A DNA stretch of 63,281 nt, counting the filler, from Candidatus Rokuibacteriota bacterium (GTDB lineage: Bacteria > JAUVQV01 > DATDCY01), in NCBI GenBank assembly GCA_031406795.1. It is 10 parts of 10 records of this genome, joined end to end, with 100 filler letters (N's around TTAATTAATTAA, not from the genome) between each part and the next. Parts side by side here need not be neighbours in the genome. Positions count along the whole stretch, not along the records: positions 35,782 to 38,429 come from JANOHV010000038.1; 9 more parts are not named here. The stretch is one strand, 5' to 3'. Below, piece by piece: positions 13,127 through 61,130 of the stretch. Numbering within the stretch: position 1 is the first letter of the stretch; each line of letters starts with the position of its first letter. A program made the position numbers and the translations under genes. The notes beneath the pieces were generated by a model. That model had not been told where the DNA came from. It worked only from the letters and a program-made list of their open reading frames with translations, and ran no database searches.

Positions 13127-13226
13127 NNNNNNNNNNNNNNNNNNNNNNNNNNNNNNNNNNNNNNNNNNNNTTAATTAATTAANNNNNNNNNNNNNNNNNN
13201 NNNNNNNNNNNNNNNNNNNNNNNNNN
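13127..13226. other. Artificial contig linker; also at 25216-25315, 28760-28859, 35682-35781, 38430-38529, 52586-52685, 54357-54456, 58936-59035, 61031-61130
   Basis: 44 N + TTAATTAATTAA (stops in all six frames) + 44 N, identical nine times. Confidence 0.99.
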
Positions 13227-25042: not shown

Positions 25043-25315
25043 GCTCAGGTCCTCCTGTCTCTGTCCCGGCCCTTACCAGTCTGTAACGTGTCAGTTTGCC
25101 ACAGGCTTCGGGAACTCGTCAATGAAAGGGCGATGCCCGGGTGCACGACAAGAAAGTGTGAGTTGACATAGGGCTGCGATCTGGCATCATGTCTGTCATA
25201 CAGTTCAAATGACAGNNNNNNNNNNNNNNNNNNNNNNNNNNNNNNNNNNNNNNNNNNNNTTAATTAATTAANNNNNNNNNNNNNNNNNNNNNNNNNNNNN
25301 NNNNNNNNNNNNNNN

Positions 25316-28759: not shown

Positions 28760-28859
28760 NNNNNNNNNNNNNNNNNNNNNNNNNNNNNNNNNNNNNNNNN
28801 NNNTTAATTAATTAANNNNNNNNNNNNNNNNNNNNNNNNNNNNNNNNNNNNNNNNNNNN

Positions 28860-35681: not shown

Positions 35682-35781
35682 NNNNNNNNNNNNNNNNNNN
35701 NNNNNNNNNNNNNNNNNNNNNNNNNTTAATTAATTAANNNNNNNNNNNNNNNNNNNNNNNNNNNNNNNNNNNNNNNNNNNN

Positions 35782-36072
35782 CCTGCTGCCCGAGCAGCAC
35801 GTGGAAGCTCTCGGCGATCACCCCGGCGGCCACGCGGCACAGATCCCCGAGCAGCCGCCGATCGTAGCGGAAGTACGCGCGCAGTATCTTGGGGATCGTC
35901 AGCACGATCTGGCTGTGTGCGACCGGCCACAGGACCGTTGAGTGCAGCCACTCGGCAAAGGCCACCGCGCGCTTGGTGTGGCATGAGGTGCAGAAGTAGC
36001 GCCGCTTGCACGAGTACGCCAGCAGATACTCGTGGCCGCAGTCCCGGCAGCGAACGCGAGCGAAACCCTGCG
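35782..36072 (-). mobile_element. IS91-like (Y2) transposase, zinc-binding domain fragment
   Basis: GFARVRCRDCGHEYLLAYSCKRRYFCTSCHTKR..HSQIVLTIPKILR. Confidence 0.85.
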
Positions 36073-36300
36073 TTGTCCTCGGCGTTGTTGACGGTGAACA
36101 GGACCTGCTCGGGAGTGAACCGGACATTCACGGTGTGGAGCACGGCGACGGTGTTGCCGGGCTTCACGCCGAGCCGCACGAGGGCGCCGGCGAGGCGGTG
36201 CGCCCGTTCGCGGAACTGCCGGTAGCTCAGGCGCACCCGATCCTTGTAGACGATCTGCTGCTCCGGGGCGTCAACGAGCGGCGCCTCGAAGAGCTGTTTG
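36073..36300 (-). pseudogene. N-terminal fragment of an acyl-CoA ligase, internally deleted and joined to the transposase fragment
   Basis: QQIVYKD..LSYRQFRERAHRLAGAL..GVKPGNTVAV|LHTVNVRFTPEQVLFTVNNAED. Confidence 0.75.
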
Positions 36301-36432
36301 CGGGTGCCAGGGAAACGTTTGTTGATGTTGACCAAACGTGAGGGGAATGGCGCCATGCCGCCGACTGTTGCTTTTCCGTTGTCGGCACTCAGGAAGCCGT
36401 TTTTCGGTGAAATAAGATCAAGCTTTCAACGG

Positions 36433-36460
36433 TTGCAAAATGCTCTCCGAGGTATATATT
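36433..36460 (+). promoter_or_regulatory. Putative sigma70-type promoter upstream of mtaB
   Basis: TTGCAA(36433-38)-16 nt-TATATT(36455-60). Confidence 0.4.
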
Positions 36461-36705
36461 AAAAACGCAATACGTGATCCCTTGGGCACCTGGTCAGAAG
36501 CCGCGCGGGGGGTAGTGCCTCGAAGTCGCCAAGCCACGGGGAGGAGTCCCTTCGTCTGGAGAACGCCCACAAGGGATCTGTGTGGGGTCCGCGCGGATCG
36601 GATTGCGTTCGGAATTTGTCGGAGCGCAAGGAAGGGAGGAAAGGCATGTAAAGAGGTGTACGCGGGATTGACTGGTGGGATAACTTCACTCAAGGAGACA
36701 ATACG

Positions 36706-38082
36706 ATGTCGAAAAAATTCGCGAAGATGGCGTATGCCAACGCAGACGAGATGATTTTCGGCACTGCCAAGTTTCCCGTCAAGTACGGCCGGGATTTCGA
36801 GGTCGGCGGCGGGTACGTTTACCCTGAGCTCGTTCCCCACCCGAGACCCGGCTCGGAGGAGACGAAGCGCAAGCTGCTCAGAGAGTACGAGCGTATGGTG
36901 AAGGACGTCCTCGACCGGTGCGTCCAACTCGGCATACCCGGTATTCAGGTCGAGCTGGAACACATCTGGCAGATGACCAAGAATCCGGACTGGGGAGGCG
37001 AGATCGCCGGGCAGACGAAGCACCTGATGGAGGACTACTACCGCAAATACGGTCTCAAGAGCGCCATCAGGGCCACGATCGCCGACAACCGCAAGCCCGA
37101 GGAAGAGAACATCAGGGACTGCACCGCCCTCGAGCTGGCTTTCAAGACTTTTGAGACCAGCGCCCGGGAAGGGGCCGACAACCTCTCGATCGAGAGCGTC
37201 GGCGGAAAAGAGATCACCGACTACGCCATCGTGCGCGGCGACATCCGCGGCGTGCTTTTCGGCATCGGCGTGCTCGGAAGCCGGGACATGGAATTCTGCT
37301 GGAAGCGCATCGTCGAGATCGCCAACAAATACAAGGTCACGGCCGGGGGCGACACGGACTGCGCCCAGGCGAACGTCGCCATGTTCATGGCCGGGGGCTA
37401 CCAGGACCGGTCGGTGCCTCACACGTTTGCCGCCCTCACGAGGGCCATCGCGGCGGGCCGTTCCCTGGTGGCGTACGAACAGGGTGCGAAGGGACCGTCG
37501 AAGGACTGCGCCTATGAAGACCCGATCATCAAGGCCATCACGGGCATTCCGATCGCGATGGAGGGCAAGACGAGCGCCTGCGCGCACAGCGATCTTCTCG
37601 GAAATCTCGTCATGGCCTGCTGCGACCTCTGGAGCAACGAGGCCGTGGAGTACCACGACATGTTCGGCGGGACAACCGTCGCGGTTTTCACCGAGATCCT
37701 GGGTTACGACTGCGCCATGATGAACGCGGCCATCGAGCTGGGAACGGCGAAGGCCCTCCAGGAGATGCTGGTGACTTCGGACAAGTACCGCGACACCCAC
37801 GGCTTCATCCTGGCTCCCGACAATGCCTGGGAGATCGGGAATGCGATCGTGGCGAACGACACGAGCTACTATTCGCGCGCCAAGGCCGCCGGCCTGAAGT
37901 CGGGCGAGCTCATGCTCAAGGACGCGAAGCTGAAGATGTCGGCCCACGAGCGCCAGGTTCTCAAGGACGCGGTGGCGGTCCTGGAAGCGCTCCCCGCGAA
38001 GGAAGGAGATTTCATCGACCAGTGCATCGGCGACTACAAGAAGCTGATCCCCGGTTTCAACCCGAAGAATTACGGACTCTAG
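36706..38082 (+). CDS. mtaB: Methanol:corrinoid methyltransferase
   Basis: 458 aa; MAYANADEMIFG, LSIESVGGKE, GGDTDC, GPSKDCAYE, EGKTSACAHSD..GNL..CDLWSNE; RBS AAGGAG. Confidence 0.92.
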   Translation: MSKKFAKMAYANADEMIFGTAKFPVKYGRDFEVGGGYVYPELVPHPRPGSEETKRKLLREYERMVKDVLDRCVQLGIPGIQVELEHIWQMTKNPDWGGEIAGQTKHLMEDYYRKYGLKSAIRATIADNRKPEEENIRDCTALELAFKTFETSAREGADNLSIESVGGKEITDYAIVRGDIRGVLFGIGVLGSRDMEFCWKRIVEIANKYKVTAGGDTDCAQANVAMFMAGGYQDRSVPHTFAALTRAIAAGRSLVAYEQGAKGPSKDCAYEDPIIKAITGIPIAMEGKTSACAHSDLLGNLVMACCDLWSNEAVEYHDMFGGTTVAVFTEILGYDCAMMNAAIELGTAKALQEMLVTSDKYRDTHGFILAPDNAWEIGNAIVANDTSYYSRAKAAGLKSGELMLKDAKLKMSAHERQVLKDAVAVLEALPAKEGDFIDQCIGDYKKLIPGFNPKNYGL

Positions 38083-38109
38083 GCGGTTTCGCAGAGGGGG
38101 TTGAGAGTG

Positions 38110-38429
38110 ATGTCTGTTCAGGCGATGTCAGGAAAAGAGCTCTTCCTCACCGCGCTCAAGGGAGGAAAGGTGCCCCGCCCCGCCGTGTTCTCGGCCGACC
38201 AAACGGGCACGTATGAATTGATGGAAAAGGTATCCGCCTACTGGCCCGAGGCGATCTGCAACGCCAAGGACATGGCCAAGCTGGCAGGGGCCGCTTCCAC
38301 CATTCTCGGGTTTGACGCGGTGAGAGTCCCCTTCTGCCAGACGATCGAGGCCGAAATCCTCGGCTCCATCCTGAGAGAGGGAGGACGCGAGAACGTCCCG
38401 AGTATCAAGAAGCACCGCTACGAGTTCGG
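38110..38429 (+). CDS. mtaA: MtaA/CmuA-family methylcobamide methyltransferase (URO-D fold), 3'-partial
   Basis: QTGTYELM..AYWPEA..MAKLA..GFDAVRVPFCQTIEAEILG; directly follows mtaB. Confidence 0.8.
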
Positions 38430-38709
38430 NNNNNNNNNNNNNNNNNNNNNNNNNNNNNNNNNNNNNNNNNNNNTTAATTAATTAANNNNNNNNNNNNNNN
38501 NNNNNNNNNNNNNNNNNNNNNNNNNNNNNCGTCGAATGATATCAATCGGTGACTCGTGCCGTTGTCGCTCGATCTGTACAAAACGTTGCCTGCCCACCTC
38601 TCAGATTTATAAGATCATCGGACCAGTTTAGGGGATAATCACAAGACGGGCGCAAGCGCGCAAGGCGGCTATGCGCTACGTTCGCTGAGATGAAGCTGAG
38701 GGGAAAGCA

Positions 38710-52584: not shown

Positions 52585-53167
52585 CNNNNNNNNNNNNNNN
52601 NNNNNNNNNNNNNNNNNNNNNNNNNNNNNTTAATTAATTAANNNNNNNNNNNNNNNNNNNNNNNNNNNNNNNNNNNNNNNNNNNNGGATCCAGCAGCAGA
52701 GGAAGCATTTCAACCGCCGAAAAAGCCGGACTTATTGCAGGAAGCACGGCGTGGCAGAGGGCAAGCATCGCTTGAAGCAGGCATTGCGATCAGATATGAG
52801 CAACGACTTGGATAAACCGGACCAGGCGACAAGCCTGACTTTCCTGATCCGCGCGTTACGCGCGGATTTGGGGATGAGCGGCTGCTCGAAGAGGTTCGGG
52901 TCCTGTCCGGGGCGCGGACAAAAAGGCATCGAGTACTTGCGGCCGAAGGCATAAGACGGGAGGTTAACGCGAAGCCAATTTCGCGTTGACGTCCATCAAG
53001 GTCTTGCCGCGGGGTGGACCTGGTCTTTCAAATGCGTGCCACCATGTCTGAAATTGCGTCTTTACCCCAAGGGTGAAAAAGCATTCAGCGCGGTCGGCGA
53101 CGCCTTGAAGGCATTCGCGCCGGGGCATAAGATTGCGGCGAGACGACTCCAGCGAGGAGGAGATCGC

Positions 53168-54274: not shown

Positions 54275-54456
54275 GCGTTCCGGCTCGGCGCGCCGGTCGT
54301 GCTCGTCTCGGGCTGCCACTTCGGCGACTGCCACTACATCGACGCCAACCACTGGANNNNNNNNNNNNNNNNNNNNNNNNNNNNNNNNNNNNNNNNNNNN
54401 TTAATTAATTAANNNNNNNNNNNNNNNNNNNNNNNNNNNNNNNNNNNNNNNNNNNN

Positions 54457-58875: not shown

Positions 58876-59035
58876 AATGCAACTGGTAGGGGCCGAGCTT
58901 GCTCGGTCCTGATGTACGCCGGCAGGTGAAGGACCNNNNNNNNNNNNNNNNNNNNNNNNNNNNNNNNNNNNNNNNNNNNTTAATTAATTAANNNNNNNNN
59001 NNNNNNNNNNNNNNNNNNNNNNNNNNNNNNNNNNN

Positions 59036-61030: not shown

Positions 61031-61130
61031 NNNNNNNNNNNNNNNNNNNNNNNNNNNNNNNNNNNNNNNNNNNNTTAATTAATTAANNNNNNNNNNNNNN
61101 NNNNNNNNNNNNNNNNNNNNNNNNNNNNNN

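Follow-up and report, generated by a model that had tools for sequence, protein, structure and literature searches.

A methanol methyltransferase locus of the Desulfofundulus kuznetsovii type, probably gained by horizontal transfer, in a Candidatus Rokuibacteriota genome

Described methanol systems and the C183 locus

Methanol methyltransferase systems comparable to the mtaB-mtaA gene pair reported here, which is located on a short contig (C183) of a metagenome-assembled genome (MAG) of a Candidatus Rokuibacteriota bacterium (assembly GCA_031406795.1), have been described in methanogens, acetogens and sulfate reducers. In the methanol:coenzyme M (CoM) system of Methanosarcina (structures 2I2X and 4AY7), the genes are arranged as mtaC-mtaB, with mtaA located elsewhere. 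In the acetogen system, represented by Acetobacterium woodii, Eubacterium and Moorella thermoacetica (mtaA1-mtaC1-mtaB1), a first methyltransferase (MT1), a corrinoid protein and a second methyltransferase (MT2) lead into the Wood-Ljungdahl pathway, with the MT2, MtaA, being a 29.7-kDa protein according to the available text of PMC13391211. The closest described system is that of the sulfate reducer Desulfofundulus kuznetsovii. As far as the available text of Sousa et al. 2018 (PMC5770442) describes it, the operon Desku_0050-60, which encodes 2 MtaA, MtaB and MtaC, is induced on methanol with cobalt, and methyltetrahydrofolate (CH3-THF) is proposed as the product. The same text places the D. 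kuznetsovii MtaB with the methanogen enzymes in one major clade, apart from those of acetogens, and suggests horizontal gene transfer. Homologues of this type are found in Thermincola, Desulfotruncus, Desulfosporosinus, Desulfocucumis and Calderihabitans.

The analysed stretch of DNA, hereafter the window, is 63,281 bases long and consists of concatenated contigs of the MAG (G000; 4.11 Mb in 278 contigs, with a completeness rating of 99.9% and contamination of 3%), split by N runs into 11 pieces, so that neighbourhood across the artificial spacers (Table 1) does not represent genomic context. C183 is included as one whole contig of 2,648 bp and carries a complete mtaB, the 5' part of mtaA, a fragment of an IS91 transposase and the remnant of an acyl-CoA ligase gene, the last 2 already recognised in the initial annotation of this DNA, which had been made from the sequence alone, and matching PF14319 and PF00501, respectively. 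The MvhD/Hdr-type and other genes of the window belong to the same bin and reside on other contigs, physically unlinked to C183. We consider it reasonably likely that the MAG chromosome has gained an island by horizontal transfer, of which C183 represents one end and which encodes a D. kuznetsovii-type operon (mtaB, mtaA, the unassembled mtaC, cobW and ramA) that would feed a CH3-THF route.

Table 1. Coordinates of the features discussed; positions without a contig or locus prefix are those of the window, and contig prefixes refer to G000.
Feature	Location	Strand	Evidence or remark
Artificial spacers, N44-TTAATTAATTAA-N44	13127-13226, 25216-25315, 28760-28859, 35682-35781, 38430-38529		no biology
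Artificial spacers, N44-TTAATTAATTAA-N44, continued	52586-52685, 54357-54456, 58936-59035, 61031-61130		no biology
Contig C183	35782-38429		whole contig
IS91-family transposase, N-terminal 115 aa (Zn-binding domain), cut by contig end	35783-36127	-	PF14319, 44.5 bits
Acyl-CoA (AMP-forming) ligase, N-terminal remnant of ~95 aa, interrupted by IS91	about 36070-36356	-	PF00501, 36.6 bits, restricted to profile positions 9-53
Stretch preceding mtaB, without homology to the corresponding DNA of the closest relatives	36357-36705	+	alignment, promoter scan
Sigma-70-like site, putative	36433-36460		promoter scan
mtaB, methanol:corrinoid methyltransferase (MT1), complete, 458 aa	36706-38082	+	PF12176, NF040651, alignment with 2I2X_A, tree
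mtaA, 5' part, URO-D-superfamily MtaA/CmuA-type methyltransferase (MT2), 106 codons, cut by the assembly	38110-38429	+	PF01208, NF040654
Intact acyl-CoA ligase gene	C141:47143-47449		closest genome match of the ligase remnant
Counterpart of the rhomboid gene of G001	C153:14444-15190		
Methyltransferase cluster (L011)	C33:29001-49000		
MvhD/FlpD-domain frame	C6:2804-3172	+	one in-frame TGA
MTHFR gene	C6:4104-5030		
Defence-type genes (L185)	C97:1900-11551		GC 0.57-0.62
Gene for a 1,965-aa protein (L186)	C222:1386-7283	-	
Second IS91 (Y2_Tnp) remnant	C222:9290-9487 (8873-9523 in L186)		
Exact sigma-54 consensus upstream of mtaB, examples among loci L012-L171	L013:5850-5865, L015:5890-5905, L044:5811-5826		

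MtaB, MtaA and their relatives

By sequence, the mtaB of C183 is an intact methanol:corrinoid methyltransferase gene. The protein matches the Pfam profile PF12176 over positions 2-460 of 460 (704.6 bits, cut-off 25) and aligns end to end with Methanosarcina barkeri MtaB (2I2X_A, 513.9 bits). Its translation contains the motifs IESVGGKE, GDTDC and KDCAYE, as pointed out in the initial annotation, and residues E163, C219 and C268 are invariant in all 14 aligned MtaB sequences. The 3 residues correspond to chain positions 164, 220 and 269 of 2I2X_A, the E/C/C columns being kept in the alignment, and we take these positions to be the zinc ligands of the M. barkeri enzyme. Separately, a public protein of 1,238 aa (P0197) was found to carry an MtaB domain at its C-terminus (residues 790-1236).

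The start codon of mtaA is located 27 nt beyond the mtaB stop, at the distance given in the initial annotation, and the frame is open to the contig end. The 106-aa fragment matches the URO-D profile PF01208 (38.8 bits) and NF040654 (MtaA_Meth, 93.4 bits); with two thirds of the gene missing, it scores 75 against TIGR01463 (cut-off 235.4), covering the first ~100 positions of this profile, and 94.9 against NF004889 (cut-off 244). Since Logan contigs of 3 public runs extend beyond position 38429, the truncation of mtaA is a product of the assembly and not a cellular one. Furthermore, a Logan contig of run X1 spans positions 35974-36995 with 0 differences, which shows that mtaB has the ligase remnant as its genuine neighbour; run X1 has no contig on 35782-35959 and runs X2-X4 cover C183 partially, and such blanks carry no weight. 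The fragmentation of the assembly at C183 can be attributed to the low read depth (about 5-11) and allelic bubbles. As proxies for the truncated protein, we used full-length metagenome homologues of 342 aa that are 87-92% identical over the fragment (90% in the case of P0368). A proxy aligns with Methanosarcina mazei MtaA (4AY7) with 225.9 bits, and identity to D. kuznetsovii MtaA amounts to 56% for the fragment and 52% for the full-length proxy. The MT2 partner appears to be of the URO-D/MtaA-CmuA type, with about 342 aa, and not of the 29.7-kDa acetogen type; this agrees with the initial annotation, which had seen more resemblance to archaeal enzymes than to those of acetogens. MtaA-type URO-D domains fused to a corrinoid-binding module (PF02607+PF01208+PF02310) were observed in 4 other proteins of 558-591 aa (P0435, P0448, P0455 and P0459).

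Among 5.8 billion proteins, the best matches of MtaB are unnamed metagenome proteins with 80-95% identity, followed by those of Calderihabitans maritimus (79%), D. kuznetsovii and Desulfocucumis palustris (both 76%) and many Bacillota MAGs, so that the named relatives, at 70-79% identity, are Bacillota. When the prokaryotes were scanned with a single genome for each species, 188 loci encoding a confirmed MtaB relative were revealed, 80 of which were kept as genome loci. The record titles of all 80 are bacterial, with Bacillota at 70-78% MtaB identity and Desulfobacterota, Actinomycetota, Chloroflexota and others at 58-62%. The identity is lower to M. barkeri MtaB (~51%, 233 of 456 aligned positions by hand count on the 2I2X_A alignment) and to representatives named Methanobrevibacter smithii, Methanomethylophilus, Methanosphaera and Hodarchaeota (42-46%), and lowest to the MtaB of the acetogen Eubacterium maltosivorans (38%). 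In an exhaustive search of cluster representatives, no full-length identity exceeded 46%. The impression that the protein resembles methanogen enzymes more than those of acetogens was therefore correct.

The phylogeny was computed with IQ-TREE in 'quick' mode from 84 rows, namely, the query, 8 named or metagenome proteins, all of the loci L012-L037, every second one of L038-L091, 7 metagenome loci and 15 distant representatives (the remaining loci were left out), with the E. maltosivorans representative as the outgroup; Methanosarcina is absent from the tree and its distance rests on the PDB alignment. The query falls into a clade of 8 rows of unnamed metagenome sequences (SH-aLRT 93), which nests in a 41-row clade (SH-aLRT 98) containing 23 Bacillota rows as well as D. 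kuznetsovii, Calderihabitans and Desulfocucumis. The bacterial MtaB clade as a whole (69 rows, SH-aLRT 99) is sister to 3 methanogen anchors (94), with the Eubacterium type placed far outside. On this placement, the MtaB of C183 is not archaeal and is methanogen-like only in the sense published in 2018. The suggestion of an archaeal-type system new to bacteria accordingly finds no support, given that the named relatives are Bacillota and that the type was reported for D. kuznetsovii in the available text of PMC5770442. The initial annotation had also regarded nesting with characterised acetogens or sulfate reducers having a THF-type partner as speaking against its view: the nesting with a characterised sulfate reducer, one half of this condition, is indeed what the 41-row clade displays, and a THF-type partner, the other half, is for the members of this clade a proposal. 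An archaeal contig erroneously placed in the bin was considered as well and rejected, because the close relatives are all bacterial, the IS91 fragment is bacterial and a gene similar to the ligase remnant is present in the bin. Near-identical MtaB genes were noticed in bins labelled Actinomycetota (L036, on a 2.7-kb contig) and Syntrophomonadaceae (L037), and a 'Desulfovibrio sp.' bin (L020) carries an MtaB of the Bacillota clade; these labels may reflect either binning errors or recent transfers among relatives.

The full operon is displayed by L093, a 17.2-kb part of a 39-kb metagenome contig (GC 0.48), the MtaB of which is 86% identical to that of C183. Here, genes for a sensor kinase and a sigma-54 response regulator are followed by mtaB, mtaA (345 aa, URO-D), mtaC (a corrinoid protein of 249 aa), cobW and the gene for a RamA-like activase (RACo/ASKHA with a C-terminal 2x[4Fe-4S] domain), and then by 2 CBS genes on the opposite strand. 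The gene directly 3' of mtaB is also mtaA in L092 and L155 (MtaB 92-93% identical), and thus in 3/3 loci with at least 80% MtaB identity, in contrast to the Bacillota-type loci of the 70-79% class, where it is mtaC in 29/29 cases; the order singled out as unusual in the initial annotation is therefore shared with the closest relatives. Below 70% identity (n = 107), the downstream gene is mtaC in 21 loci, ramA in 6 and cobW in 3, with something else or nothing in the remaining 77. Gene content was counted where mtaB is flanked on either side by 4 kb or more: MtaC, CobW and RamA are each encoded in 22/22 loci of the 70-79% class and MtaA in 16/22, the corresponding numbers for the class below 70% being 56/56 (MtaC), 48/56 (CobW), 45/56 (RamA) and 48/56 (MtaA). 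Judging from these loci, the mtaB-mtaA order results from local reshuffling within a five-gene module that is otherwise conserved. MtrH is no regular part of it, since it is encoded near mtaB in only 1/22 and 6/56 loci of the 2 classes, respectively.

Bacterial mta operons seem to be commonly controlled by sigma-54. Of the 134 loci with 400 nt of upstream sequence, 43 have an exact match to the consensus TGGCAC-N5-TTGCW on the coding strand, at a distance of 64-223 nt before mtaB (examples in Table 1). The relatives' loci, 1.5 Mb in total, contain only 57 exact matches when both strands are counted, and 13 further loci contain it 2-5 kb upstream of mtaB. A sigma-54 response regulator is encoded nearby in 14/22 and 44/56 of the well-flanked loci. 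In L093, the consensus is found with 2 mismatches 164 nt upstream of mtaB, with the sigma-54 activator gene adjoining.

In sum, the locus shares with the D. kuznetsovii type the MtaB clade, the URO-D/MtaA-CmuA-type MtaA and, probably, the gene set mtaA, mtaB, mtaC (unassembled here), cobW and ramA. It differs in its host, which is not a member of the Bacillota but of a phylum represented in our collection by 6 genomes, and in having the IS91 fragment and the ligase remnant in place of the upstream regulator and promoter. With the Methanosarcina system, it has in common the MtaB fold family, the MT2 superfamily and a RamA-family activase, but the 2 MtaB are only about half identical, the MtaA proxies remain below the CoM-specific equivalog and the host has no McrA or ComA match (see below). 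The general scheme, in which MT1, a corrinoid protein and MT2 lead into the Wood-Ljungdahl pathway, would be the one known from acetogens, from which the locus differs in its MtaB and in its MT2.

Connection to the host genome and competing explanations

Further genes that probably belong to the operon were found on a second contig of the MAG, C153 (21,150 bp). Positions 11252-13777 of L093 match the end of C153, from 21149 back to 18633, with 74% nucleotide identity, a value equal to that of mtaB. Within its final 2.5 kb, C153 encodes CobW from residue 15 onward (61% amino acid identity to that of L093), followed by the activase and CBS genes as in L093; the RamA-family activase, one of the genes that the initial annotation had listed for a search, has 553 aa, is 83% identical to that of L093 and clears TIGR04270 (749.9 bits, cut-off 500). 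On the scale of L093, one and the same operon would be interrupted by the ends of C183 and C153, with about 1.5 kb between them, so the missing piece would comprise the rest of mtaA together with mtaC.

The first 15 kb of C153 are colinear with G001, a genome of the same genus, with 82-92% nucleotide identity, and the last ~2.6 kb have no match in 5 relatives, except for one 116-nt stretch. Concomitantly, the GC content decreases from 0.68-0.72 in the backbone to 0.55-0.66 in the last 6 kb. Next to the rhomboid gene of G001 (counterpart in Table 1), homologues of positions 1-554 of contig C97 and of the end of contig C64 are found within about 300 bp, and not the mta region; in C97, the first kb has a GC of 0.69, and values of 0.57-0.62 follow. 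These data are most simply explained by an island of lower GC content, at least 10 kb long, that adjoins the rhomboid gene, contains the mta operon and terminates in IS91 debris. MtaB is encoded in 1 of the 6 genomes of the host phylum in the collection and in 1 of the 41 relatives searched, and the lower-GC DNA in which it lies is missing at the matching place in G001. Both observations support the proposal of the initial annotation that the genes were acquired horizontally, and the mta operon was probably gained in this way. As a separate observation, locus L185 on C97, of which only the first 554 nt of the contig match the sister genome beside the rhomboid locus, contains defence-type genes, including those for an SNF2/ResIII helicase with NOV_C, a DUF4062 protein with HATPase_c_4, a protein with a Fic-like C-terminal domain and a DUF499 protein.

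Similar to D. kuznetsovii, the host is an anaerobe bearing dsrAB and the Wood-Ljungdahl pathway. Its DsrA scores 560.7 bits (cut-off 392.85), with DsrB adjoining, and acetyl-CoA synthase (CdhC/AcsB, 207 bits) and MTHFR (117.9 bits), both connected with the initially proposed gene search, were also found. The MvhD-type components mentioned in the initial annotation were recovered as 7 domain matches, on contigs other than C183. No McrA or ComA (PF02249, PF02679) was detected in this genome, rated 99.9% complete; the bacterial CoM pathway was not searched for. In the pathway that we propose, the zinc site of MtaB (E163/C219/C268) would activate methanol and methylate the Co(I) corrinoid of MtaC, and MtaA would pass the methyl group on from methylated MtaC. 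The RamA-family activase would re-reduce corrinoid that has slipped to Co(II), and CobW would act as a GTPase metallochaperone. The resulting CH3-THF would enter the methyl branch of the Wood-Ljungdahl pathway, either to be oxidised, with the electrons going to DsrAB-type sulfite/sulfate reduction, or to be incorporated into acetyl-CoA. In this manner, the host would be able to draw methyl groups from methanol by means of the island. Independently of the mta genes, an MvhD/FlpD-domain frame with one in-frame TGA was noted directly upstream of the MTHFR gene on C6 (Table 1); the TGA may encode selenocysteine, the frame then being part of an Hdr/MvhD-MetF-type module.

A number of observations, concerning the family assignment, the assembly, the bin, expression and the methyl acceptor, weigh against C183 being part of an acquired D. 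kuznetsovii-type operon that serves a CH3-THF route. The MtaB score against the NCBIfam equivalog NF040651 (MtaB_Meth) is 710.9 bits, 9 short of the cut-off of 720, which D. kuznetsovii MtaB clears (727.9 bits); this shortfall is marginal and touches the equivalog label, not the fold family. The join between C183 and C153 is inferred from synteny with a single metagenome contig, L093, with no spanning read or contig seen. The G000 assembly contains no mtaC: its only 2 B12-binding_2 matches are both on C33, and the best tblastn match of the L093 MtaC is a 31% paralogue. Likewise, the missing mtaA/mtaC piece is on no other contig of G000, where tblastn retrieved only paralogues of 30-31% identity.

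Other such points concern the bin itself, because C183 is a 2.6-kb contig in a bin with 3% contamination and its GC content, 0.616, is below that of the genome (0.671), in the 7th percentile of 1,407 pieces of the same size. In addition, none of the other 5 genomes available for the phylum encodes MtaB, although 3 of them belong to the host's genus (78, 88 and 95% complete), and the labels of L036, L037 and L020 indicate that small contigs with mta genes are either mobile or readily mis-binned. All this would be compatible with C183 being mis-binned and coming from another organism of the same sediment community, such as one of the unnamed clade with 80-95% identical MtaB. We regard such an origin as quite improbable. 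The cobW, ramA and CBS genes that the operon lacks on C183 are carried by C153, the backbone of which is 82-92% identical to a same-genus genome, and C183 has the same GC content as the island part of C153 and as C97. The tetranucleotide test of bin membership advocated in the initial annotation gave an ordinary distance for C183, with 13.5% of the 1,407 pieces being equally far or further from the genome mean. Finally, the best match of the ligase remnant in the genome is the intact gene on C141, with 54% amino acid and 73-80% nucleotide identity and an internal deletion.

With regard to expression, C183 and L092 are homologous from no more than 24 nt ahead of the mtaB start codon onward, and the broken ligase gene and the IS91 fragment are located directly upstream. 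Unlike in the relatives, no sensor kinase or sigma-54 regulator is encoded upstream of mtaB on C183, which also has no sigma-54 promoter, the best consensus match having 4 mismatches, and G000 has no homologue of the L093 kinase/regulator above 34-38% identity. With the kinase, the regulator and the promoter missing upstream, the expression of mtaB is uncertain. Conceivably, the locus is a decaying remnant, in which an IS91-mediated rearrangement cost the regulator pair, the promoter and perhaps mtaC, so that growth on methanol is no longer supported. We consider this scenario unlikely, as mtaB and ramA are intact open frames with conserved catalytic columns, mtaA continues past the contig end in 3 runs and the missing genes fall exactly into the gap between 2 contig ends, a break for which the low depth and the bubbles provide an explanation. 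Moreover, mtaB is preceded by a putative sigma-70-like site (Table 1) and by a good ribosome-binding site, AAGGAGA, 7 nt before the ATG.

The IS91 fragment scores 48.4 bits against NF033538, under the cut-off of 125 because it is truncated. As only one other IS91 remnant exists in the genome, on C222, the copies are useless for linking contigs. C222 (GC 0.60) was also found to encode a protein of 1,965 aa with animal haem peroxidase, cadherin-like, bacterial Ig, RTX and FG-GAP domains (L186).

The last group of observations pertains to the acceptor of the methyl group. The H-x-C and later C positions aligning with the CoM enzyme 4AY7, presumably a thiol-activating zinc site, are kept in both P0368 and D. 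kuznetsovii MtaA. P0368 also clears the cut-offs of NF004889, 'methylcobalamin:coenzyme M methyltransferase' (303.7 vs 244), and TIGR01463 (258.3 vs 235.4). A competing view is that the operon is real but that its URO-D-type MtaA, like the methanogen relatives, has a thiol as its acceptor (sulfide, a CoM-like cofactor or a different small thiol), any transfer to tetrahydrofolate (THF) being left to the separate MtrH-family enzyme. An MtrH-family gene is indeed located 4 kb from the mta operon of L093, and another is native to the host, in a cluster on C33. According to the available text of Kurth et al. 2021 (PMC8630106), the MtrH-like proteins of the Mto/Mtv O-demethylase systems are methylcorrinoid:pterin methyltransferases, and MtaA-like proteins outside methanogens have no assigned role in the text available from Kountz and Balskus (PMC10418091). 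A literature search covering passages of main texts found no report of a bacterial URO-D-type MtaA assayed with THF. On the other hand, the host has no ComA or McrA match, the proxies fall short of the CoM-specific equivalog NF040654 (303.1 and 306.2 vs 400, with D. kuznetsovii MtaA at 326.4), MtrH accompanies mtaB in few of the well-flanked loci and the published D. kuznetsovii model and a review, in their available texts, assume THF as the acceptor (PMC5770442; PMC8048578). Considering these points, we find a thiol acceptor rather improbable and methyl transfer to THF the likely route. Comparably doubtful is the broader possibility that the URO-D-type MtaA of the whole clade methylates a thiol or sulfide in sulfate-reducing hosts, with a separate MtrH-type enzyme serving the folate route. 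If this were the case, methanol would be linked to methylated sulfur compounds or an unknown thiol cofactor, and the C183 island would be a mobile cassette bringing this chemistry into a barely sampled phylum.

The C33 cluster encodes 2 RACo activases, 2 corrinoid proteins, 5 URO-D-family proteins, the MtrH-family protein, CMD and DUF2284 proteins and a CbbQ/VWA pair. Its first 7.8 kb are 83-93% identical at the nucleotide level in G001 and G003, indicating that it is native to the genus. In its corrinoid protein, URO-D methyltransferases, MtrH-like protein and RACo activase, it resembles the Mto/Mtv O-demethylases, as these are described in the available text of PMC8630106, and it differs from the mta island in being on a separate contig, native to the genus and devoid of MtaB. 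The cluster could share a THF-directed step or an activase with the mta island. An MtrH-CMD-URO-D block with 75-84% amino acid identity to this cluster is present on L093, 4 kb from the mta operon.

Implications

The findings leave the knowledge of the enzyme family unchanged, given that the methanogen-like bacterial MtaB clade and its possible horizontal transfer were published in 2018 and that the clade is widespread, with 188 species-level loci in one scan. They do touch on the question of which methyl acceptor the bacterial URO-D-type MtaA uses. For the host phylum, which is represented by 6 species genomes, the locus adds methanol methyltransferase potential. If the operon extends from C183 into C153 as we propose, it would constitute a fairly clean case of the island-borne transfer of a C1 module, consisting of MT1, MT2, a corrinoid protein, a chaperone and an activase, into a sediment bacterium with dsrAB and the Wood-Ljungdahl pathway, and would bear on the competition with methanogens for methanol in freshwater sediments.

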